Positions 35,667-56,548 of a DNA stretch of 64,000 nt are shown piece by piece (position 1 is the stretch's first letter; every line of letters begins with the position of its first letter). Position numbers and translations under genes: made by a program. Origin of the DNA: an uncultured delta proteobacterium (GTDB taxonomy: Bacteria > Myxococcota > Myxococcia > Myxococcales > Myxococcaceae); contig CAWCKH010000004.1 of NCBI GenBank assembly GCA_963796055.1, forward strand, positions 2,944,001 to 3,008,000, written 5' to 3'. The notes beneath the pieces are model-generated. The model was not told the DNA's origin and did no database searches. It saw only the letters and a list, made by a program, of their open reading frames with translations.

Positions 35667-36086
35667 ATGCAAAGCATCGAGGCGGTGAGGAGCGACTGGC
35701 GCGGCGAAGGACGGGCAGCCCTCGAGCAGTCGCACTGGGAGCTCCAGAGCTGGGAGCGCGCCTATCCGACCCTGCCTGTGCCGTCGGAGGTGAACGGCGC
35801 AACCGACGCCCAGCGTGCCGATGCGTATCGAGCGGCCACCCGCGCCTGCCTGCGTTTCATCTTCGAAGGCATGGCCCTCGGGAGGCCGGGCGCTCGGAGA
35901 TGGCCCGAACGCGTCTGGGCCGTGATCCAGCAGTACGGTGTCGGGCGGGCCCGAGATCTCGAGGGGTCACCCATCGAGTCGAGCGAATACGAGACGGCCC
36001 TCTACGACATCGTGGACTGGTATCGGGACCTGGCCGCACGAACTCTTTCGAGGAGCGAGCGGCTTGGGCGGGCCAGCGCAACATAG
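35667..36086 (+). CDS. Hypothetical protein (mobile-element type)
   Basis: GGAG RBS; stop lies inside an att-arm repeat. Confidence 0.5.
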   Translation: MQSIEAVRSDWRGEGRAALEQSHWELQSWERAYPTLPVPSEVNGATDAQRADAYRAATRACLRFIFEGMALGRPGARRWPERVWAVIQQYGVGRARDLEGSPIESSEYETALYDIVDWYRDLAARTLSRSERLGRASAT

Positions 36087-36198
36087 GCGCAACGTGGCGC
36101 TGTCCAAGAAGCCTACGTGAGTTCTGATGCTTGACGGCCAAGCCTGCGGAACGCTTGGACTCGAGTTGCACATGGTTGCGAACACTGGCGCAACATGA
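36072..36198. repeat. attP-like junction of integrase arm sequences lacking the core
   Basis: 36072-36093 identical to 56409-56430; 36102-36169 is 54/68 identical to 49529-49596; GCGCAACA doublets. Confidence 0.75.
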
Positions 36199-36975
36199 TG
36201 CGAAGCGTCCTACGACGCGACCTACAAGGTGGAGTCGGTCAACGCGCTCCTGGCGAAGCTGCAGGATGCCCGCGAGACTCTAGAGATGATCGCCCAATGC
36301 GCCACGTCGCGCGAGCAAGAGCAAGAGTGGGCACGGAAGGCAATTGAGATCCTCTCCAGAAGGAGTCGGTGATGAAGGACCATCATCGCGATCCTGCCGG
36401 TGCGGTCCGGCAGTAGCCCCAGTCCTGCGCGGAAACGGAACGCCCTCGACGAGACGCTCGAACGATCGGCCCGGGACGCCATCCCAGGGGAGAGCCAGGA
36501 GCGGCTTCGCGGATATGCCTCGGGGTCGGCGACCTTGGGCCGCGCGACCGTGGGGCTGCTTGAGCTGATCACCTACCAGGGTGCGCTGGGCTGCAAGCGG
36601 GTACTCGAGAATGACGAGAGCCGATGGACTGACCTCGATCTGACGTGCTCGTACGGGTTCTGGGAAGTTCACGCACTGGCGGCCGCCTACGATGTCGACC
36701 CGTCACCGACGAAGCACGCCCGCACGAATCTGGACAATGCAGCGCGAGTCTGGCCCTCCGGGCAAGTTGGTTGCAGAGAGCAGAGTGGGGGCGTACGGAG
36801 AACGGCGTAGTCCGATTGCCCTCACCGGCTTCAGCCGAGCGACCTCTCGCTGCTCCTCCTGATCGTCTCTCCGGCAGGAGCCGTCGCGCCTGTTCATCGG
36901 GGGACGACAGGAAGGCCAGCCGACCGCCCCGGGTGCGCGAGCCGCGGTAAGGAGCTGCCAGTTCGGAGGTCCGCC

Positions 36976-46385: not shown

Positions 46386-46601
46386 ATGGATGGATACTGG
46401 ACGCCACGAATCCTGTACGTCTCTCGTGAGTTCTGGAAGCCGGGTCATGACGCCCAGCTGAACCGGATCGAAGCCGAAGGCGCGCGCGTGTGCATTGGCC
46501 TCGGGGTCCCGCGTCCGTACCTGGGCATCGAGTCGCTGACCGGCTCGAAGGAGGTCTGGTACCTCAATGGATTCGCCTCGGCCGGGCAACTGGCCAAAGT
46601 C
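46386..46601 (+). pseudogene. Hypothetical gene truncated by IS end
   Basis: Coding-like 72 codons run directly into the IS-end repeat at 46602. Confidence 0.5.
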
Positions 46602-46877
46602 AGGTCCAAGGAAGAACAAACCGGGCTTTCGTGGCGGAGGCCCGGGCAGGGGTCCGAGTCGCCGGGCCGGAGTGGGCAGGACGAGGCTGCCGGGAAGGGT
46701 GCGGCGGGGCGCTCACCCGTTGGAGGGTAGAGCAGTCCCAGGGCCGTGGTCGGGCCGGGGCGAGTCTCGAACCTCGGACGGCACCTACCAGAGGCCGAGC
46801 TGGGGCGGGGAGGTTGGCCGGAGCGAGCGGAAGCGGCCTGGAGGGGAGCCGCAAGTGCTCGAGGATGGCCTGGGCCG
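46602..46877 (-). mobile_element. Second copy of IS91/ISCR-like downstream (oriIS-like) end with transposase C-terminus
   Basis: Aligns with about 47492-47768; both start AGGTCCAAGGAAGAACAAA; encodes AILEHLRLP...PPQLGLW. Confidence 0.85.
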
Positions 46878-46993
46878 TCGAGACCTCCAGGACGCGGCGA
46901 GGAGCACCGTGGGGAAGGTTCTCGAGATCGCCGCCGCCGCGCGCACCCAGGCTGCTCGGCGGATGGGCACTGCGTGTTTCCCCGGGTGCTGAT

Positions 46994-47275
46994 TCAGCCC
47001 TGGTCGTCCCACGCGAAGACGTATTCGTCCTCGGACGTGTACACGACCAGCCCGGCCACGGGCTTCCCGGACGCGCCCGCCACCTCGCCGGCGAAGATGC
47101 TTCCGGCCTCCCAGGGGTTCCTGGGCAGCGAGTGCTCCTCGAGGAACTCCCGGGCCTGATCCTCGACCCAGCGCCGCGCGCTCATGAGCGCCGCCCCTGC
47201 GTCCGGGTCGCCGGGAAACGTCTTCGCGCGCGGAGGAACCGTCCCGACCTGGGCGCTGTACGAGGTGCTCATCAC
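46994..47275 (-). CDS. Hypothetical protein between IS ends
   Basis: AAGGAG RBS, 93-aa coding-like ORF. Confidence 0.55.
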   Translation of the reverse strand: MMSTSYSAQVGTVPPRAKTFPGDPDAGAALMSARRWVEDQAREFLEEHSLPRNPWEAGSIFAGEVAGASGKPVAGLVVYTSEDEYVFAWDDQG

Positions 47276-47491
47276 GGGCTCCTTTCCCCGAGTGCTACCA
47301 CGAAGCCAATCTCACCCGTGGCGGCGGATGAACTCCCCCGCCTGCCCGAGCGCCTCGCGGCCGGCCGCCAGCCCAGCGTTCCACACCGGCCACGCACGGA
47401 TCATGTGCGGCCACATACGTCCTCCGTTCAGGGGGTCCGCATCTCCGTCACCAGCCGTCCCGCCCCGTACACCTTCTCCAGTCCCTCGAGG

Positions 47492-49050
47492 AGGTCCAAG
47501 GAAGAACAAACGGGGCCTTCGTGGCGGAGGCCCGGGCAGGGGACCCGAGTCGCCGGGCCGGAGGGGGCAGGACGAGGCTGCCGGAAAGGGCTCGGCGGAG
47601 GTGGTGACCCGTCGGAGGGTAGAGCAGTCCCGGGGCGGTGGTCAGGCGGGGGCGAGTCTCGAACGTCGGACGGCACTCACCAGAGGCCGAGCTGGGGCGG
47701 GGAGGTGGCCGGGGCAAGGGGAAGCGGCCTGGAGGGGAGCCGCAGGTGCTCGAGGATGGCCCGGGCCGCCCGAGGAACGGAGAACGACTGCCACGACGCG
47801 GCGGGTGCCCCCGCAGCGAGGGCAGGCGAGGACGTCGGTCTGGAAGGTCCGCTTGAGGAGCTCGGCCCAGGGGATGGGGTGGCGAGGCCGAGGGGACCGG
47901 ACAGGCTCCGGCGCCAGGGGGCAGGAAGCTGCCTCGATGAGCGCCGCGGGGGGAGGAGGCGCGGGCACGACGCGGGGACGCACCCGGGCGTTGGGGGCGA
48001 AGACCCCGAAGTAGCGGACGCGGGTTGGCCCTGGGGGGCGGGACGAGCGCGGCCACCGGGGCGGAGGAAGGCCACCGGAGCCAGGACGAGGTGCGTCTCT
48101 CCGGTGGGGGAGGCCCGCTTCATCCGGTAGGCGAGCCGGCCGTCAGGCAAGGCCGAGAGTCGCTCCAGCGACAGGGGCCCGCGGGCGCCGCAGTTGCACA
48201 GCCGCTCGAGGCCGACGACGTCATTCTCGTGAAGCCAGGTGTCGGCGTGGAGCGAGAAGCCCTCGGGCGAAGGCACAGCGGCGGGCAGACCGGCGCGCGG
48301 GAGGACGCGGCCCGCTCCGTGGAACCCGGATGCCTTCGAGCTGGAGGACATCGAGCGCTCCATCCGGCACGGCCTGCTCCTCGAGGGCGCCTCGAGCGTG
48401 GAGCAGGCGAAGGACACGACGGGCCACGGTGACGGCGAGTGCCTCCACCTCGGCGTGGGTGGGCCGAGGCAGCGGGTGGAGACGCATTCCGCCCCGTCCA
48501 GTTCCTCGAAGACGGCCTCGGGGACGAGGACGTGGAAGTGGGGCGTCAGCTGCAGCGCCGAGCCGAAGCGCTGGACGAAGGCGACCGCTCCAGTCAGCGG
48601 TCGGGCCACCCCGAGCCGCCGGGCCGCCCGGCGCTGGAAGGTGAGGAGCGCCCGGACGAAGAGCCTCAGCACCTCGGACAGAAGCCGGGCGTCCCTGGCC
48701 AGACAGAAGCGCACCGGCATGGGCAGCGACAGCGTCCACTGGCGGTACGGAGCCCGTGGAAGCACCCGCTCCACGAGGTGGATGGCCGTGCGCCCGGCGC
48801 GCGTTGCAGGAGGGACACACCCCTCGGGACTTGCACGAGAAGGGGACCAGCACCTCGCTCCGGCACGCAGCGCAGGCCAGCCGGGCGAAGCCGTGGGCCA
48901 GCACTCCGCAGCCAAGGTACCGGCTGAAGTCCCGCTCCACGAAGCGCGGGAGACCGCCCCGGTCGGCCGCCTGGGAGAAAGCTGGCGAGGTGGCCGCGCA
49001 CCACCTGGTGCAAGACGGTGCCCTCGACGTCGCGGCGATGGTCGACCGCC
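47492..49050 (-). mobile_element. IS91/ISCR-family rolling-circle element with frameshifted transposase
   Basis: Zn finger (CGVLAHGFARLAC...SCKSRGVCPSC), QRFGS, HUH (HFH), GFSLHA, DVLACPRCGG; several frameshifts; catalytic Y appears mutated to C; upstream boundary not defined. Confidence 0.88.
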
Positions 49051-49242
49051 CCGAGCGCCCGCTTCCCCTCTGGCCCGAGAATGGTCTCGCGCTCCCCGTC
49101 GCCCGCAGCCCCCGCCCGCCGCGCCACCGCCGCAGGCCCTCGTGCAGGCGCCGCGCCAGGAGACGACGGCGGGGCCGCGCTGCACGCGCCGTCCAGTCAC
49201 CTGGACGCCGTCTATGGGAGCTCACATGTGCGCCGGTAATAA

Positions 49243-49475
49243 GAGCGCGACCTTCGGACGGCGCTCCTGAACGGGACCTACGGAACGGCCTCCGAGGTGC
49301 CGACCGTCGCGGACATGTCCATCGCGCTCCTGGAGCGCACGCGCCTCCGCCGGAAGGACTCGACGGGGGTCTTCTACGAGGTTGATGCTCGAGAAGCCCA
49401 TCGTGCCGCGAGAAAACGCGGGTAACCGAGGTGATCCCTGAACGCATCGACCGCTTCGCGCGAGCGATGACCGAT
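49243..49475 (+). pseudogene. Possible tyrosine-integrase N-terminal relic
   Basis: ERDLRTALLNGTYG...VPTVAD...KDST...LEKPIVP...IDRF across frameshifts, directly beside the att core. Confidence 0.4.
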
Positions 49476-49495: not shown

Positions 49496-49517
49496 AGCTG
49501 GGGAACTAGGATTCGAA
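49496..49517. repeat. att core: direct repeat of tRNA-Gln 3' end
   Basis: AGCTGGGGAACTAGGATTCGAA identical to 56476-56497. Confidence 0.95.
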
Positions 49518-49862
49518 AATAGAAACAAGTCCAAGAAGCCCAAGTGACTCCAAGTGGTTACGGGCCAAGCCCGCGGAATGCTTCGACTCGAGTTGCTTGG
49601 GACAGGTCGAGCTGGGTTTCGCCCTGTTGAACGGCCGAGCGCAACACTGGCGCAACATGACTCGGGAGATGAGAATCTTGGACCCGATCGGAGTGGCCAG
49701 CAGCCCAACGGGCACCACTGCGGTTGCTGAGCCGGCCTACCGTGGTACCCGCAGTCGCGCCGTCGATTGGCCGGTCGGTCGGCATCGACTAGCAGTGACG
49801 TCTTGAGCCGGCCGTCTGCGAGTTCGCAGGCGACCGGCCATCGACCGAGCAGGTTGGGTCGG

Positions 49863-51935
49863 TCAGATCTTTCGGAGGTACGCGAGCAGAGCGGGAACCT
49901 CGGCGTCCGTGAACGGACGGTCTTGCACCGGAGGTACGACGCCCGGCTGGGTGGTGAGTAACGGCGCTGTCGGCGCTTGGATCGCGACGCGTTGGAAGAA
50001 CGCCTTGTAATGGTCGAGCACCTCTTCGAGCGTGGCGGCGGTGTTGCTGACGAAGTAGGGCGCGGTCTTGCTGATTCCGCGCAGGTTCGGGTTGTCGAAG
50101 TGCTCGATGTCGCCGGGGCCGCCGGGCACCGGGTAGCCGGTGAGGAGCATCCGGCCCGGATCCGACGTCGTGACGCGCGTGACGCAGGGAGGCTGGGGCG
50201 CAGGCCCTCCGCACGCAGTTCCGCTCGGCGGCACACCGCTGTTGGTGATCTCGTAGGTCCGCACGTTCGCCATCTGGCTGGGGCTGCACGGCTTGAACAG
50301 GAAGCGGGGCGGAGACACCGTATCGACCGGACGCGGGCACGGGGAAAAGATGGAGTGGTAGCGGATGAGGGCAGTGGGCGTTCCTTCCGTCCCTTGAAGG
50401 ATCGGCGTGCTGCCGCTCGGGTGGCCACCCTGGTTGCCGTGGCATTGCCCGCAGGACCGGTTGAAGACTGCCTTGCCCGCAGTTTCGAGCGCGTCCAACT
50501 CGGGATCGGGATCCGGCAGGGGAACGGTGCCCGCCGCCATCGCGTCGGAAAGGATCTCCACGCCAGGCGAGGAAAACTGGGTGCTCTGGAAGTCTGCCAC
50601 GTCGTCCAGGAAGCTCACCGGTGGGTCCACTTTGATCGCCGCGTGGGACCGGAGCGCAGCCAGCGCCTGGTTCTGCAAAGTGTCGATCCGGCCGTCGAGC
50701 TGGTAGCCCCCGCTCCGATTCGGCCCGCGGAGCGATACCGGAGCGAGGCCGTCGGGACCGGTGATGTTGACGTTGAGGATTGACGGAACGGAGCGCCAGA
50801 CGTCGGCAACGGTCTCGGAGGTCGGCCGTGCCGTCGCGGGACAAGGAACGGTCGACCCGCAATCGAGCAGCTTCACGTTTGGCGGCAGAGGAATGGTCAC
50901 TCGAATCAGACCGTTCACGGTCAGATTCGTGTAGTCGTGGGCGGCCGCGCCATTGATGCGGAAGTCGTTGGCGTCGATCGGGCGGAAGAGCGGGTCGTCC
51001 TCCCCTGAAGTGGTCATCTCGTTGAACCGCGCCAGGGCCGCCTCGGGCGTCAGCTGAAATCTCTCTGAGGGCATGTGGCAGTCGGCGCAGGCGCGCCCGT
51101 TGCCGTCCAGTCCGGCGAGGGTGCGATCGTGGAAGTTCGCCTTGCCGCGGCAGAACACGCTGTCGATCGGAGTGTGGGAGGGACCCGCAGCCACGTCGCA
51201 CGAATCGGTGGTGCATTCGTTACCGTCGTCGAGCGCGATGGGGGTGTGAATGACGACGCCGGTGACCAGATCGCACGTATCCGTCGTGCAGGCGTTGTCG
51301 TCACTTTGGACGGGACCGGGGAGGCCCAGGTGAATCTCGGTCGTTGGAAGATGCTTGTCACCACGCTGCACGTGAAGATGAAATGTGTCCGCAGTCACGA
51401 TGCTGCCTGCGACGGGAAGCGGATCGGCCGGCCCATCGCTTTCGTTGGCATCGTCATCGTCCGCGGGTTCAGCGCCCAACCTGCACTTCTTGAACACGTA
51501 CAGCAGCCCGCCGGAGCCGAAGTCACCGTTGCCGCGGTAGACACAGGTCGTAAAGGAGCCGCCTCCGCTACTGAAGCTCAGCTGCGCTCGGCCTTTCGCG
51601 GAGGCGCCGGCGGTCACCGGGATCTCGGAGGGGATGGGGAAGGTGAGGGAACCCCCAACAAAGGTGACATCGCCGTCAGTCCAGCTCTTGGGGTGGTAGG
51701 TGCGCCGCGCGTCCAGCGAAACGCCGGCGCAGGGGGACAGGGCATCGGCAACCAGGCCGCCGTGCCCGGTGCGGGCTGGTGAGGTCGGCGCGGAGGCGGG
51801 CTCCTGCCGAGCTGTCGCTCCGGGCGCTGCCGCAGGATCGATGACCCCGCACCCGGCGGCGCTGAGCAAGAGGAGCGCCGCCGCCGTTGGACAGCCAAAG
51901 TGAGTCCGGACGAGAGGTCGGCCAGGGATTCCCAT
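49863..51935 (-). CDS. Lipoprotein with Cys-rich repeats and di-haem cytochrome c peroxidase/MauG-like domain
   Basis: Lipobox AAGC; DDNACTTDTC/DDGNECTTDSC; CADCH and CGQCH; YQLDGR; PNLRGISKTAPYF. Confidence 0.85.
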   Translation of the reverse strand: MGIPGRPLVRTHFGCPTAAALLLLSAAGCGVIDPAAAPGATARQEPASAPTSPARTGHGGLVADALSPCAGVSLDARRTYHPKSWTDGDVTFVGGSLTFPIPSEIPVTAGASAKGRAQLSFSSGGGSFTTCVYRGNGDFGSGGLLYVFKKCRLGAEPADDDDANESDGPADPLPVAGSIVTADTFHLHVQRGDKHLPTTEIHLGLPGPVQSDDNACTTDTCDLVTGVVIHTPIALDDGNECTTDSCDVAAGPSHTPIDSVFCRGKANFHDRTLAGLDGNGRACADCHMPSERFQLTPEAALARFNEMTTSGEDDPLFRPIDANDFRINGAAAHDYTNLTVNGLIRVTIPLPPNVKLLDCGSTVPCPATARPTSETVADVWRSVPSILNVNITGPDGLAPVSLRGPNRSGGYQLDGRIDTLQNQALAALRSHAAIKVDPPVSFLDDVADFQSTQFSSPGVEILSDAMAAGTVPLPDPDPELDALETAGKAVFNRSCGQCHGNQGGHPSGSTPILQGTEGTPTALIRYHSIFSPCPRPVDTVSPPRFLFKPCSPSQMANVRTYEITNSGVPPSGTACGGPAPQPPCVTRVTTSDPGRMLLTGYPVPGGPGDIEHFDNPNLRGISKTAPYFVSNTAATLEEVLDHYKAFFQRVAIQAPTAPLLTTQPGVVPPVQDRPFTDAEVPALLAYLRKI

Positions 51936-51974
51936 TTGAACGCTCGCAGTGTGGAGGGAGAGGTCTCTGATCCC

Positions 51975-52003
51975 CGTACGGAATCAGTCCGGAAAAGCGG
52001 CCA
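51975..52003 (-). promoter_or_regulatory. ECF-type promoter box 1 (di-haem gene)
   Basis: TGGCCG-cttttccggactga-TTCCGTACG. Confidence 0.75.
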
Positions 52004-52079
52004 TTCCTAGGTTCTGGCCGGGCGTCGCGTCGGGTACGCTCTGGACCGCCCTGGCGCCGACGCTGGGACGCTGACTGGT

Positions 52080-52280
52080 GGATCACCGTCGCGGACCTGA
52101 ACGGGGACGGCCACAACGAGGTGATCGCCGCTGCGGGCGGAGCGTTCGTCGTCTTCCCGGGCGGGTCGGACGGCACGGTCGGCAGCGCCATCCGGTACCC
52201 GGTCCAGCAGGGTGCAACCTCGCTGGTGGCGGCCGACGTCGACGGCGATCGCGCTCCGGAGCTGGTGATGGCGGGAACTA
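52080..52280 (+). pseudogene. FG-GAP/VCBS repeat fragment
   Basis: ADLNGDGHNEV...ADVDGDRAPELV; no start, no full propeller. Confidence 0.65.
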
Positions 52281-52316
52281 GCACCACCCTCGAGCACGCC
52301 TGCACCCGCGGGGCGG

Positions 52317-52448
52317 TCAAGGCGGCGTTCGGATCTCCGTCCCCCCGGGCGGCGGCGTGCCCCTTGCGTCCTTCGAGCCGCATCCCGAGAGTGCCGCTCC
52401 AGCCCAGGCGACGGCAGCTCCCAGGAACAACGCCTCGACGACCCTCAT
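52317..52448 (-). CDS. Short (43 aa) lipoprotein or truncated lipoprotein gene
   Basis: GGAGG RBS; MRVVEALFLGAAVAWAGAALSGC lipobox; stop shortly after a G-run. Confidence 0.55.
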   Translation of the reverse strand: MRVVEALFLGAAVAWAGAALSGCGSKDARGTPPPGGTEIRTPP

Positions 52449-52484
52449 GACGGGTCCCCTCCGCGCCGGCATCCCCACAGGGCA

Positions 52485-52513
52485 CGTACGGAAGGTGCCG
52501 ACAGGACCGGCCA
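52485..52513 (-). promoter_or_regulatory. ECF-type promoter box 2 (short lipoprotein)
   Basis: TGGCCG-gtcctgtcggcacc-TTCCGTACG. Confidence 0.75.
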
Positions 52514-52587
52514 GCCGGGCAGACGGAGCGTTGAAATCCCGCCATACTTCGGCGGGACGCTGCACCCTGGAACCTGCCGAACCGGCC

Positions 52588-53160
52588 GTGGACAACGCCG
52601 ACGCACCGCTGACCGATCTCCTTCAGCTCGCCGCCCGCGGTGAACCGGGTGCGCTGGACAAGGTCTTTGCCGTCCTCTACCCGGAGCTGCGGCAGATCGC
52701 GCACGCCCGGCTCCAATCACAGGGCGGCGTCGCGCACCTCGAGACGACCGCCCTCGTCCACGAGAGCTTCCTGCGTTTCGTGGAGGCGCAGCGGCTCGCG
52801 GTCACTGGCCGCAAGCACTTCTTCACCTATGCGGCGAAGACGATGCGGAACATCATCGTCGACTTCGCGCGCGAGCAGCTCGCCGAGCGCCGTGGGGGTG
52901 GCCAGCCCACGCTGGAACTCACCCCGACGCTCGCGGGCACGGTCCGCTCGGGCGACGGGGACGTCACGCTCATCCGCATCAACGACGCTCTCCTCGAGCT
53001 GGCGAAGGTGGACCCCCTCCTCACCCAGGTCGTGGAGATGAGGTACTTTGCCGGATACACCGAGGTCGAGATCGCCGAGCTGCTGGGCTCGTCCGAGCGC
53101 ACGGTGCGACGGCAGTGGGAGAAGGCCCGGGCCTTCCTGCTGGTCAGTCTCCAGCCCTAG
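52588..53160 (+). CDS. ECF sigma factor, kinase-associated (ECF43/TIGR02999-like)
   Basis: LYPELRQIA, LETTALVHESFLR, MRNIIVDFAR...RRGGG, VVEMRYFAG, TVRRQW. Confidence 0.92.
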   Translation: MDNADAPLTDLLQLAARGEPGALDKVFAVLYPELRQIAHARLQSQGGVAHLETTALVHESFLRFVEAQRLAVTGRKHFFTYAAKTMRNIIVDFAREQLAERRGGGQPTLELTPTLAGTVRSGDGDVTLIRINDALLELAKVDPLLTQVVEMRYFAGYTEVEIAELLGSSERTVRRQWEKARAFLLVSLQP

Positions 53161-53165
53161 CAATC

Positions 53166-53194
53166 TGGCCGTTTCCGGAGCCGCGTTCCGTACG
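53166..53194 (+). promoter_or_regulatory. ECF-type promoter box 3 (kinase gene)
   Basis: TGGCCG-tttccggagccgcg-TTCCGTACG. Confidence 0.75.
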
Positions 53195-53217
53195 TGGGAG
53201 GACGAGGCGGGAGTCCG

Positions 53218-56200
53218 ATGAACGTATCGCCCGAAACCTGGCACAGCCTCTCGAGCCTGCTCGACCAGGCGCTGGACCTCGCTCCGGACGGACGGGCGGC
53301 GTGGCTCGAGGGAGTGGCCCGGACGCAGCCCACACTCGTGCCGACCCTGGTCCGGCTGCTCGAGGCCCATGCCTCGGGCGAGAAGACGGACGTGCTCGGG
53401 AGCTCGCCGGCCGCGCCCTTCGCGGCGAGCATGCCCGGCGAGGAGAACGGCCTCGGGGCCGGCGATCGCGTGGGACCGTACCGTCTGCTGAGGCCGCTCG
53501 GCTCCGGCGGCATGGCGGACGTGTGGCTCGCGGAGCGGGACGACGGCGCGTTCGCCCGGGAGGTCGCGCTCAAGCTGCCGCTGGTGAGCCGGCTCCGGCG
53601 GGATCTCGCTGTCCGCTTCGCCCGTGAGCGGGACATCCTCGCCCGCCTCGAGCATCCGCACATCGCCCGCTTCTACGACGCCGGCGTCAGCACCGACGGG
53701 CTGCCATACCTCGCAATGGAGTACGTGGACGGACGTCCAATCACGACCTGGTGCGACGAGCACCGGGTGGACCTGGCGGCCCGGATCCAGCTCTTCGCTC
53801 AGGTGCTCTCCGCGGTGCAGTTCGCGCACGCCAACCTCGTCATCCACCGGGACCTCAAACCGTCGAACATCCTGGTCACGGACGACGGCCAGGTCCGTCT
53901 CCTCGACTTCGGAATTGCCAAGCTGCTCGCCGTTGACGAGGAGCGCGCTCCGGAGACCCAGCTGACCCGGTCGAGTGGTCGGGCGTTGACCCCGGAGTAC
54001 GCGAGCCCCGAGCAGATGCGGGGAGAGGCGCTGACGATCGCCAGCGACGTCTACTCGCTGGGGGTCGTCCTCTTCGAGGTCCTGGTCGGATCGCGCCCGT
54101 ACCGGCTGAAGATCGAATCGGCCGCCCAGCTGGAAGAGGCCATTCTCGCAGCGGACCCGCTCCGGCCGAGCGCGAGCGTGACCGACGCGGCCGCGGCATC
54201 GCGTGGAGTGTCGCCGAGCCGTCTGGCGAAACAGCTCGCCGGGGACCTGGACACGATCGTTCTCAAGGCGCTGGCCAAGGCGCCCGCCGCCCGGTACGCG
54301 ACCGCGCTGGCGCTGGCCGAGGACCTGGAGCGCCACCTGCGCGGTCTGCCGGTCCTCGCACAGCGGCCTTCGGCCTGGTACCGGCTGCGCAAGTTCGTGG
54401 GCCGGAACCGCTGGCCAGTGGTCATCGGCGCCGGCGCCGCGTCGGCGCTGATCGCCGCGACGGCCATCGCCCTGGCGCAGGCGCATCGTGCGACCGAACA
54501 GCAGCGCGTTGCCCAGGAGGAGGCCCGCAAGGCGACGGCCGTGAAGGACTTCCTCGTGGAGTTCCTCGGGGTCGCGGACCCGGCGGGGACGAGTGGGAAG
54601 CCTCCGGGACAGATCACGCTGCAGGAGGCGATCGACGGCGCCACCGGCCGGATCGGATCAGCGCTCGCGGACCAGCCGGAGGCGAAGATGGCGGTCCTCG
54701 AAGCTCTGTCATCCGTCTACGAGTCGCTGGACAAGAACGAACGGAGCGCCGCCTTGCTCCGTGATGCGCTCGCCCTGTCGGAGCGTCACGACGGCGTCCC
54801 TCATCCGAACCAGGCGCGCTTCCTGATGGAGATCGCCAACATCGAGATGTTCGCCGGCCGGTCCGAGGAGTCGGGGCGCTGGCTCGACCGGGCCGAGTCA
54901 GTCTTTCGGGCGCTGGGCGACACGACGTCGCGCGCCTTCGCCAGTGCACTGAAGCTCCGTGGCAACCTCCTCCGGCGCGGTCCGGCGCCCGACTTCCAGA
55001 GTGCGACGGTGCTGCTCGAGCGATCGGCGGCGCTCTTCCGGACGCGCTACCCGCATGATGAAGGAAGGCTGGGCGCGCTGTTCTATCTGGCCCAGACTCT
55101 GCGGTCGGTCGATGCGGCGGACCGCGCGGAGGCAATTGCCGACGAGGCGGTCGCCCTGGCGGGAGAGTCGAAGATGCCGGGCTTCGACATCCCGAATGCG
55201 TACTCGCTCAGGGCGGCGATCCGGGAGAGCAACGGCGACCTCCGTGGGGCGGACACCGACTATGCGGCGGCGACCACTTTTTACGAGAAGAGCGTCGGCG
55301 ACGCGCATTTCCTCACCCTGCAGAACGCCGGACTGCACGGGATGACCCTGCTTGAGATGGGTCAACGGGACCGCGGACTGCAGATGATCGAGACGTCCAC
55401 TGCGTTGCTGGCGAAGACGCGCACCGGCAGCAACACCCACGCGGCGGCGGTGGAGCGGCTCGGGATCGCCTACGTCCTCGTCGGCAGCTTCGAGCGGGCG
55501 GATCCGCTGCTCGAGGAGGCGCGCACGCTCCTTGGAACGCGCCACGACGACCTCGTTCGGACCGGCCCCACCGTGTACCTGGCCGTCGCCCGTGCGGAGC
55601 GCGGCCGGTACCAGGAGGCGCGAGCGCTGCTGGACGAGGCGCTCGCGGTGCGTCGCGATCGGGCACACGTCTCGTGGCTTCCGGTCGCCGAGGTCCACCT
55701 CACCAAGGGCCTGGTCGCGCTCGACGAGGAGGATGCAGCCGTCGCCCGGACCGAGCTGGAGCGGGCCGTCACGCTGTCGGCCACGCGGACGCGCGGAGAC
55801 CTCTCCCGTCGCGCGCTGGCGTATGCCGGCCTGGCCACCGCGGCACAGCTCGTCGGGGACGGAGACGCGGCGCGGGCGGCCGCCGATCGCGCGGGAACCT
55901 TCGCCGCCGAGCCGTCGTTGAGCCAGATCCCGCTGCTGCAGGCGACGGTGGTCGAGGCGAAGGGGACGAGCCTCTGCCGATCCGGGCGGGCGCAGGAGGG
56001 GGAGCCGCTGCTGGCACGCGCCGCGGCGAGCGAGGCGGAGCTGTTCTCGCCCGGAAGCCCGCTGCTGGCGCGGGCGTGGCTGCTCCATGCCGAGTGCCTG
56101 GCGGCGCTCGGGCGCATCGGTGAGGCGCGCGCGCGTGTGGAGGCAGCCGCGAAGCTCCTCGCACCCGACGGGACCGCGCCGCACCTCCGGTCGCTCCTGG

Positions 56201-56244
56201 CGCACGTGCGGGCGCGCCTGGCGAGGCCCGGGCCCGGGCCGTAG
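53218..56244 (+). CDS. Membrane Ser/Thr protein kinase with extracytoplasmic TPR-like repeats
   Basis: GSGGMADV, VALK, HRDLKPSN, DFG, TPEYASPE; one TM; helical repeats. Confidence 0.95.
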   Translation: MNVSPETWHSLSSLLDQALDLAPDGRAAWLEGVARTQPTLVPTLVRLLEAHASGEKTDVLGSSPAAPFAASMPGEENGLGAGDRVGPYRLLRPLGSGGMADVWLAERDDGAFAREVALKLPLVSRLRRDLAVRFARERDILARLEHPHIARFYDAGVSTDGLPYLAMEYVDGRPITTWCDEHRVDLAARIQLFAQVLSAVQFAHANLVIHRDLKPSNILVTDDGQVRLLDFGIAKLLAVDEERAPETQLTRSSGRALTPEYASPEQMRGEALTIASDVYSLGVVLFEVLVGSRPYRLKIESAAQLEEAILAADPLRPSASVTDAAAASRGVSPSRLAKQLAGDLDTIVLKALAKAPAARYATALALAEDLERHLRGLPVLAQRPSAWYRLRKFVGRNRWPVVIGAGAASALIAATAIALAQAHRATEQQRVAQEEARKATAVKDFLVEFLGVADPAGTSGKPPGQITLQEAIDGATGRIGSALADQPEAKMAVLEALSSVYESLDKNERSAALLRDALALSERHDGVPHPNQARFLMEIANIEMFAGRSEESGRWLDRAESVFRALGDTTSRAFASALKLRGNLLRRGPAPDFQSATVLLERSAALFRTRYPHDEGRLGALFYLAQTLRSVDAADRAEAIADEAVALAGESKMPGFDIPNAYSLRAAIRESNGDLRGADTDYAAATTFYEKSVGDAHFLTLQNAGLHGMTLLEMGQRDRGLQMIETSTALLAKTRTGSNTHAAAVERLGIAYVLVGSFERADPLLEEARTLLGTRHDDLVRTGPTVYLAVARAERGRYQEARALLDEALAVRRDRAHVSWLPVAEVHLTKGLVALDEEDAAVARTELERAVTLSATRTRGDLSRRALAYAGLATAAQLVGDGDAARAAADRAGTFAAEPSLSQIPLLQATVVEAKGTSLCRSGRAQEGEPLLARAAASEAELFSPGSPLLARAWLLHAECLAALGRIGEARARVEAAAKLLAPDGTAPHLRSLLAHVRARLARPGPGP

Positions 56245-56477
56245 GCGGTCGGCAGAGCGGCTGCCACTCCGGGGGGCGACATGCGTCGTCTGGGTGTGTC
56301 TGGGGTGTGGAGGCTCGAGCGTCATCTCCACACGAGATCAAAGCCACCCGCGAGCTGACCGGTGCACATCTAATCCCGTCGAAGAGCCGCCCGTCACCGC
56401 CGAGACCAGCCAGCGCAACATAGGCGCAACATGATCGAATCAAACTTTGTAAGTTGCTGAATTATTTATTGAAAAAG

Positions 56478-56548
56478 CTGGGGAACTAGGATTCGAACCT
56501 AGATAGACAGATCCAGAGTCTGCCGTCCTGCCGTTAGACGATTCCCCA
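56478..56548 (-). tRNA. tRNA-Gln (CTG), CCA not encoded
   Basis: TGGGGAA/TTCCCCA acceptor stem, GCAGA-CTCTGGA-TCTGT anticodon arm, GGTTCGAATCC T-arm. Confidence 0.97.

Follow-up and report, generated by a model that had tools for sequence, protein, structure and literature searches.

Which sigma factor reads the three near-identical boxes that surround a sigma factor gene and a receptor kinase gene in this DNA, and what does it transcribe from them? In our reading, which we consider probable, the boxes would be promoters of the adjacent ECF43-type sigma factor, which would be switched on when a TPR-bearing kinase phosphorylates its residue Thr54, with a constant core and a variable cargo carried on one cassette. 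The features discussed are collected in Table 1; the window is the whole analysed stretch of 64,000 nucleotides.

Table 1. Features of the sigma factor–kinase cassette, in window positions
Feature	Position	Strand	Remarks
Left att-like repeat	49496..49523	.	28-nt copy (93%) of tRNA-Gln 3' end
Conserved left cassette end	49496..49660	.	GCGCAACA-N2-GGCGCAACATG repeat; common to same-genus cassettes with different cargo
Di-haem predicted lipoprotein, 690 aa, Cys29	49863..51935	-	Dicty_CTDC repeats; boxed target; MbnH/MauG/CcP superfamily domain
Box 1	51975..52003	-	Predicted promoter of di-haem gene; -35 TGGCCG, 17 nt, -10 CGTA
FG-GAP repeat fragment without start	52073..52300	+	PF13517, PF01839; opposite strand to neighbours
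43-codon PKD-domain lipoprotein remnant	52317..52448	-	Residues 1-37 share 92% identity with P0241; frame lost beyond
Box 2	52485..52513	-	Predicted promoter of lipoprotein remnant; divergent slot upstream of sigma gene
Weak sigma-70-like site	52520..52548	+	CAGACG-N17-CATACT, 7/12; upstream of sigma gene; predicted housekeeping promoter
ECF43-type sigma factor, 190 aa, GTG start	52588..53160	+	TIGR02999, PF07638; sigma-2.2 ETTA, Thr54 = EcfK T51
Box 3	53166..53194	+	Predicted internal promoter of kinase gene; 5 nt past sigma stop
Hanks-type receptor kinase, 1008 aa	53218..56244	+	Kinase domain 88-306, motifs intact; C-terminal TPRs
Conserved right cassette end	56345..56475	.	Carries GCGCAACA repeat as left end does
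tRNA-Gln(CTG), integration site	56477..56548	-	tRNA 3' end = right repeat 56476-56503

Three boxes and an ECF43-type pair

A sequence-only reading had described three like boxes at a fixed spacing, each 23–39 nt upstream of a start codon in the matching orientation, with no other full copy in the window. That description holds. TGGCCG-N14-TTCCGTACG occurs exactly three times in the window and gave no match in 100 dinucleotide shuffles. The distances from box to start, measured on the sequence, are 39 nt (ATG 51935), 36 nt (ATG 52448) and 23 nt (ATG 53218). The boxes read TGGCCG / CGTACG and have the makings of an ECF-type promoter: a bipartite motif, a fixed spacer, a CGT-type -10 and a coding-strand position upstream of gene starts. 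A scan of the whole genome (5,530,790 bp, 7 contigs), which the same reading had proposed, found no exact copies beyond these three, and no wider regulon emerged from exact matches. Allowing one mismatch adds a single site, C4:2421633, which is without the -10 T.

The sigma factor matches TIGR02999 at 170.5 bits (cut-off 126.15) and Sigma70_ECF (PF07638) at 145.1 bits, also over the cut-off. The LETTALVHE segment ascribed to it is present; in sigma-2.2, DAED is replaced by ETTA, an S/T motif with a conserved Thr. The gene at +1 encodes a Hanks kinase with its catalytic motifs, a TPR_12 match in the C-terminal TPRs and one transmembrane helix at about residues 399–421, predicted from hydropathy only. 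No anti-sigma family was found among the scanned proteins, and the neighbours of the sigma gene are the kinase gene and a pseudogene. The accessible ECF43 description (Casas-Pastor et al. 2021, PMC7826278) lists Sigma70_ECF, a +1 kinase with one transmembrane segment and outside TPRs, and an S/T-substituted sigma-2.2; the window is like it in the Sigma70_ECF domain, the +1 kinase and the substitution. Two characterized members resemble the pair here, as far as their accessible descriptions go. EcfP/PknT of Vibrio parahaemolyticus likewise has no anti-sigma and an S/T motif in place of DAED, of which the second Thr is phosphorylated, but its motif is STTA rather than ETTA and its output is polymyxin resistance. 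EcfK/PknS of Xanthomonas citri (PMC13147305) likewise consists of a sigma factor followed by a one-TM Hanks kinase (the helix here being predicted) with TPRs and an N-terminal extension; its output is the T6SS, as against predicted surface lipoproteins here.

The motif beside related sigma genes

Loci of related sigma genes were searched with a relaxed motif, TG[G/T/A]CCG-N17-CGT, a pattern chosen after inspecting an earlier result. With this post hoc pattern, 39 of 106 ECF43-type loci have a match within 100 nt past the sigma stop, 37 of them with a spacer of 17; shuffles gave a mean of 0.7 and a maximum of 4, and the reverse strand gave 0. The box is absent from this position in the other 67, among them all 16 loci of less than 45% identity. 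Upstream of the sigma gene, the motif is divergent in 27 of 103 loci and lies on the strand of the sigma gene in one. Patterns taken from the window only behave in the same way in 101 foreign loci: TGGCCG-Nx-CGTA has 27 matches at N17 versus 0–9 at other spacers, and TGGCCG-Nx-TTCCGTA has 5 at N14 and none elsewhere. The window-only pattern is present in 13 of 16 close-clade loci. Box density is 1.48 per 10 kb near related sigma genes versus 0.024 in the genome, an enrichment of about 60-fold that includes the matrix training sites. When the genome is scored with a matrix built from 33 foreign sites, the window boxes take ranks 2, 4 and 7. An exact-motif scan of a contig collection was less specific: among the at least 120 stretches listed, one (L068) adjoins an ECF43-type sigma and kinase, and the remainder look like chance.

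The kinase gene accounts for 31 of the 85 boxed ORFs, including 5 in which it is divergent from the sigma gene or kilobases distant; where the kinase gene has been moved, the box stays with it. As far as gene layouts tell, the kinase is very likely the constant target of the box. The other boxed ORFs tend to have a hydrophobic N-terminus (35 of 54, against 164 of 547 background ORFs).

Because the motif is rare in the genome, is placed past the sigma stop or divergently, and stays with a moved kinase gene, the boxes very likely serve as the promoter that sigma factors of this subclade recognize. The sequence-only reading had taken them for this ECF's promoter and had suggested an enrichment test; the fixed 17-nt spacer, the bias in strand and position and the density near related sigma genes all favour that assignment.

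Literature searches, with subscription journals outside their coverage, found no published consensus promoter for ECF43, EcfK or EcfP and no mention of TGGCCG/TGTCCG boxes. The accessible group text (PMC7826278) gives a predicted ECF43 promoter, -35 GTC and -10 CAG, which is not a membership criterion and which the window boxes do not match. The GTC does lie within the TGTCCG variant described below, but CAG differs from CGT(A). The same text describes no internal kinase promoter or cargo. In the accessible literature, activation by phosphorylation is established and the promoter is only a three-base prediction; the circuit type is already known, and no printed record of this promoter came up, which makes for moderate novelty. 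A defined promoter lets regulons be read from the genomes of uncultured soil bacteria.

Proposed activation of the sigma factor and possible insulation from its paralogue

How would the sigma factor be controlled? A sigma-70-like site at spacer 17 precedes all 16 close-clade sigma genes, although in the window it scores below the cut-off of a strict scanner. Such conserved motifs suggest that a weak housekeeping promoter likely drives constitutive synthesis of the sigma factor; basal kinase would probably be supplied by read-through. Autoregulation was rejected on the count of a single same-strand upstream box among 103 loci. By analogy with PknS, an outside signal would then act through the TPR domain to activate the kinase. 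The kinase would phosphorylate the sigma factor at Thr54. The phosphorylated sigma factor would bind core polymerase and fire the TGGCCG-N17-CGTA promoters of the di-haem lipoprotein, of the dead lipoprotein gene and of the kinase itself. The last would constitute a positive feedback through box 3, which we infer from gene layout.

Part of this scheme is open to another account, in which the boxes are still promoters of this sigma factor, but the Glu in ETTA or acidic residues in the linker would help it to be active without Thr54 phosphorylation, or else the internal promoter gives no feedback and serves only to balance the dose of kinase. Thr54 aligns with T51 of the Xanthomonas floridensis EcfK orthologue (35% identity), and a Thr is found there in 99 of 107 aligned sigma factors; an acidic residue, Asp or Glu, precedes TT in 74 of the 107. 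The accessible account of EcfK states that it keeps an acidic residue (QATE) and that a T51A mutant still complements (PMC13147305). Since ETTA keeps its Glu and the EcfK mutant is functional, the switch may involve more than Thr54. Against this account stand the conservation of Thr54, the intact kinase motifs and the boxing of the kinase gene even when rearranged, and we think it unlikely. At the X. floridensis orthologue, unlike here, the stop codon of the sigma gene overlaps the start of the kinase gene, so an internal kinase promoter is lacking; its recognition helix also differs from that of the window's sigma factor, and a 38-kb stretch of the T6SS region there contains no box of this class.

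A different sigma factor of the host might read the boxes instead. The genome has three TIGR02999 sigmas, and a paralogous ECF43-type sigma at C4:3075940-3076476 has boxes that differ from the window's only at -35 position 3 and in the bases after CGT; two of these variants rank 1 and 3 genome-wide with the 33-site matrix. At L068 both variants are present next to a single sigma gene, and the ECF41/ECF42 promoters given in the accessible text of PMC7826278 (TGTCACA or TGTCGAT with CGTC) resemble the boxes. However, in unrelated hosts too the TGGCCG/CGTA form accompanies this sigma clade, and the remainder of this genome lacks it; the TGTCCG variant is found with more distant homologues. Variable bases also agree between boxes of one locus (39 and 40 of 48 pairs versus 23 and 17 expected). 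On this evidence, reading by the paralogue or by an ECF41/ECF42-type sigma is quite improbable. A site of the TGTCCG/CGTC form, C4:1732859, may be a distal target of the paralogue itself.

The two forms may reflect a code in the sigma-4 helix. Gln176 goes with G in 16 of 17 sigmas and Asp with T in 28 of 31, a strong raw association that ignores kinship. On the tree it amounts to 3–5 independent pairs (p 0.25–0.5), none in the opposite direction. In sigma-E, R173, which seems to be the equivalent of this position, touches the backbone. The code by itself is a hypothesis. A wider and tentative proposal, which we rather doubt as a whole, is that phospho-sigma, kinase and self-amplifying promoter would form a plug-in module on integrase-less tRNA-Gln cassettes, capturing surface-protein genes via the 29-nt box, with paralogues insulated by a two-base code (TGGCCG/CGTA versus TGTCCG/CGTC) set partly by Ser169 and Gln176 versus Thr and Asp. 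If true, it would provide orthogonal, kinase-gated bacterial switches. In any case, a defined promoter, a predicted kinase loop and a paralogue pair with variant boxes make the circuit testable by simple reporters.

Cargo on a tRNA-Gln cassette

The sequence-only reading had called the unit self-contained. It had overlooked that the unit is a mobile 7-kb cassette behind a tRNA-Gln gene, bounded by repeats, which accounts for that look. It has a copy of the tRNA 3' end and conserved ends; relatives have other cargo between the same ends, and tandem or circle-type junctions are seen for such cassettes. None of 23 PF00589 (tyrosine integrase) matches falls in the window, and the cassette would be mobilized by a recombinase encoded elsewhere. 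That the boxes would be remnants of local duplication or recombination signals of this scarred cassette, rather than promoters, is hardly credible. Some spacer bases are common to boxes 1 and 3, but spacer sequences otherwise vary while both box ends and the spacing of 17 nt persist among sigmas with as little as about 45% identity; the boxes face a gene start in every case, and the cassette ends bear a different repeat.

The constant core would consist of the sigma gene, the kinase gene and the kinase box, and the cargo of interchangeable boxed surface-protein genes. The di-haem gene had been read as the defining output of the circuit. It is boxed in the window and in three near-identical islets, but of 8 further homologous loci only 1 has a box; in one genome of 95% completeness the gene is present and no TIGR02999 sigma was found. 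The di-haem gene was therefore rejected as a fixed output; judged from gene content, the di-haem protein is interchangeable cargo. Its domain has CxxCH at 283 and 495 and a C-terminal 'PxLR...APY' segment, as in the bCcP/MauG superfamily. In a profile search of solved structures, MbnH (PDB 6e1c) was best (E 6e-8), followed by MauG (0.02–0.04), and in the alignment the invariant Tyr643 falls opposite Tyr312 in the 6e1c chain, which we take to be the axial haem ligand. It falls outside the MbnH family TIGR04039 (30.9 bits, cut-off 362.85). The two CxxCH motifs are shared with the MbnH and MauG enzymes, but the protein here is a predicted lipoprotein with Dicty_CTDC repeats and is without a partner or substrate gene. 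CCP_MauG occurs in 12–71% of members in most rows of its Atlas neighbours; an AlphaFold2 model of the haem domain was unusable (mean pLDDT 41.6). The cassette thereby points to an uncharacterized, highly conserved MbnH/MauG-like surface enzyme.

The middle target is a dead gene. What had been called a short lipoprotein gene was rejected as an intact small lipoprotein, its 43 codons being a frameshifted, truncated pseudogene of a PKD-domain lipoprotein. The adjacent FG-GAP fragment, missing or eroded in relatives, is by all appearance a scar. Public runs were matched as contigs only, with shares of at most 0.35. A 56430-to-49700 joint occurs at 85% likeness in two public RNA-library contigs, which may stem from other cassettes. 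In three of four public DNA runs, a joint was found that corresponds to relatives without the FG-GAP piece but with the lipoprotein-remnant region kept.

Candidate promoter boxes beside related sigmas

The motif TGGCCG-N14-TTCCGTACG is present in three copies in the window and in none of 100 shuffles. As the sequence-only reading had it, each copy precedes a start codon on the matching strand, at 39, 36 and 23 nt. No other exact copy exists in the 5.53-Mb genome, and so the motif is not common genome-wide, which would have spoken against that reading; allowing one mismatch adds a single site, and allowing two brings the total to 22. With a scoring matrix derived from 33 sites of foreign loci, the window boxes rank 2nd, 4th and 7th genome-wide.

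Features of the sigma/kinase unit and of the paralogous locus (window numbering unless a contig is given)
Feature	Position	Strand	Remarks
Di-haem gene	49863-51935	-	690-aa predicted lipoprotein
Box 1	51975-52003	-
Middle target	52317-52448	-	43-codon ORF
Box 2	52485-52513	-
Sigma	52588-53160	+	over cut-off for TIGR02999 and PF07638
Box 3	53166-53194	+
Kinase	53218-56244	+	Hanks domain intact, one predicted TM helix, TPRs
Paralogous sigma + kinase locus (L259)	G000:C4:3066700-3076500		boxes precede about 1,100-aa lipoprotein and 244-aa secreted-looking protein

For comparison, 79 metagenome loci, 29 from the window's phylum, L068 (uncultured Rubrivivax) and two paralogue loci were gathered, leaving 106 once identical sigmas and shortened loci were removed. 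Using TG[GTA]CCG-N16-18-CGT, a pattern loosened post hoc when the loci had already been inspected, a box was found within 100 nt past the sigma stop in 39/106 loci, 37 with spacer 17, against a shuffled mean of 0.7 (maximum 4) and 0 on the reverse strand. By identity to the window sigma, this box is present in 12/19 loci at 65% or more, 27/71 at 45-60% and 0/16 under 45%. In the region before the sigma gene, the motif faces away from the sigma in 27/103 loci and towards it in 1/103. Because of the loosening, 101 foreign loci, all with less than 90% identity, were also scanned with window-only patterns at spacers 10 to 24. TGGCCG-Nx-CGTA gave 27 matches at spacer 17 and 0-9 at each remaining spacer, while TGGCCG-Nx-TTCCGTA gave 5 at spacer 14 and zero elsewhere. 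TGGCCG-N17-CGTA is present in 13/16 close-clade loci versus 4/85 distant loci. The proposed enrichment near ECF43/kinase pairs was also found, at 1.48 sites per 10 kb near related sigmas (matrix training sites counted in) versus 0.024 in the genome. It is well supported by these comparisons that the three boxes represent the predicted cognate promoter of the ECF43-type sigma.

The genome has three TIGR02999 sigmas. The paralogue at C4:3075940 has two TGTCCG-N14-TTCCGTCC boxes ahead of secreted-looking proteins, and no box ahead of its kinase gene. Boxes within a locus are concordant at two variable positions in 39/48 and 40/48 pairs, where 23 and 17 are expected. Gln176 of the sigma pairs with TGGCCG in 16/17 loci, and Asp with TGTCCG in 28/31. 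Viewed on the tree, the association comprises one large clade and one outside case, and independent-pair tests were not significant; we hypothesize that a code may relate residue 176 to the -35 base. L068 has one sigma, two kinases and four boxes, two per -35 variant. A TGTCCG/CGTC box with a high score, about 12 nt ahead of an ATG (G000:C4:1732859, plus strand) and far from any ECF43 sigma, is possibly a distal target of the paralogue.

The boxed genes

There are 90 box sites in the target set, 85 with a downstream ORF under a simple rule. The kinase is the boxed ORF in 31/85; these fall in 30 loci, of which three are near-identical to the window. Five of these cases (L215, L217, L231, L173, L068) have a kinase gene that runs divergently to the sigma or lies kilobases off and yet retains its box; therefore, the box goes with the kinase gene and not with the sigma 3' end. 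The 54 non-kinase boxed ORFs are of diverse kinds, with a hydrophobic N-terminus in 35/54 versus 164/547 background ORFs. One further boxed target, in near-identical islets (L132:11767-13944, L133, L134), is a 725-aa lipoprotein with zero Pfam matches. An orphan kinase adjoining tRNA-Leu(TAG) (L260, G000:C5:158117-161038; 52% identity across 988 aa), with neither sigma nor box in its neighbourhood, is a possible cross-talk partner.

The 690-aa lipoprotein contains two CxxCH motifs. Its closest solved structure is the di-haem enzyme 6e1c; MauG matches are weak, the protein scores below the MbnH family cut-off, and its predicted fold was not usable. The invariant Tyr of the domain aligns with Tyr312 of the 6e1c chain, presumably a haem ligand. 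In near-identical islets, the gene is shifted to the kinase's other side with its own box kept, and an extra boxed lipoprotein is present. Beyond those islets, sigma, kinase and box accompany 1/8 di-haem loci, and genome G189 (95% complete) encodes a homologue 85-89% identical with zero TIGR02999 matches. The di-haem gene is thus cargo, and not the defining output first proposed. A search of 8 same-genus genomes found the domain in none of them. It is patchy (4/401 genomes in each of two samples) and unusually conserved (window 49863-51170; P0121-P0240; 76-94% among the best 120 of 2,691 matches); one di-haem locus adjoins a tRNA-Leu gene.

The short lipoprotein, previously read as an intact gene, is a frame-lost remnant. 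Compared with a longer PKD-domain lipoprotein, the 43-codon ORF is 92% identical over residues 1-37, is thereafter out of frame, and is followed by an FG-GAP fragment on the opposite strand. Two near-identical islets have lost the ORF and retained the box. Judged from its sequence, the middle boxed target is dead.

Regulation of the sigma and relation to known ECF43 systems

As described in parts of PMC13147305, PMC7826278, PMC8999054, PMC8103513 and PMC6713349, kinase phosphorylation in sigma-2.2 activates ECF43 sigmas. The window system agrees in every ECF43 feature open to testing and may work like EcfK/PknS and EcfP/PknT: an outside signal would act on the TPR kinase, the phospho-sigma would fire the boxes, and this would amplify the kinase and induce surface proteins. 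Thr54 aligns with T51 of the EcfK orthologue from a Xanthomonas floridensis genome, whose QATE motif and T51/T104/T106/S108/S110 numbering agree with the relevant part of PMC13147305. A caution for a Thr54 phosphorylation switch is that EcfK T51A is still functional (same part of PMC13147305) and that the window sigma retains Glu in ETTA. The orthologue differs in having overlapping sigma and kinase genes, whereas an internal kinase promoter is predicted here. No box was found in 38 kb around the orthologue, nor directly past the sigma stop in 16 other distant ECF43 loci. The published predicted ECF43 promoter is GTC/CAG (PMC7826278, supplement part 13). Literature searches, with coverage that lacked the primary EcfP paper, found no printed consensus of the TGGCCG/CGTA form, in keeping with the earlier reading, to which no description of this promoter was known.

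Upstream of the sigma gene, the best sigma-70-like site has a 17-nt spacer in 16/16 close-clade loci, with a mean of 7.6/12 matches versus 5.3 shuffled. The window's own site scores 7/12 and was not called by a strict promoter scanner. The conserved site fits a sigma made constitutively and activated post-translation, as we infer. A small GC hairpin (52537-52556) across the predicted -10 is probably incidental, since its right arm is altered in L131-L133.

The tRNA-Gln cassette

The unit described as self-contained is indeed bounded; its nature is that of a tRNA-Gln cassette, with 28 nt of the tRNA-Gln(CTG) 3' end copied 6,980 nt from the tRNA. At the same tRNA, two same-genus genomes have 7.7-kb and 7.2-kb inserts sharing left and right ends with the window and differing in cargo (an RHS/YD lipoprotein; VWA and other lipoproteins). 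The three inserts (7.0, 7.2 and 7.7 kb) are thus similar in size, with common ends bearing a GCGCAACA-N2-GGCGCAACATG repeat and no common cargo. Three further same-genus genomes have other DNA at the site, and right ends are joined to left ends in G310, G805 and L131. Within the genus, the tRNA-Gln(CTG) adjoining gltX is a hot spot for cassettes. A tyrosine-recombinase search placed 0/23 matches inside the window. Cassette ends lie at window 49496-49660 and 56345-56503, and in L282 (G310), L283 (G090), L286 (G805) and L131. A second, worn set of end motifs at 36072-36200 suggests an older stacked island spanning 36-49.5 kb. Directly left of the cassette (46600-49450) are a duplicated segment with an 890-nt period and pieces of an IS91/ISCR-type transposase in two frames (47677-49200, 48221-49447).
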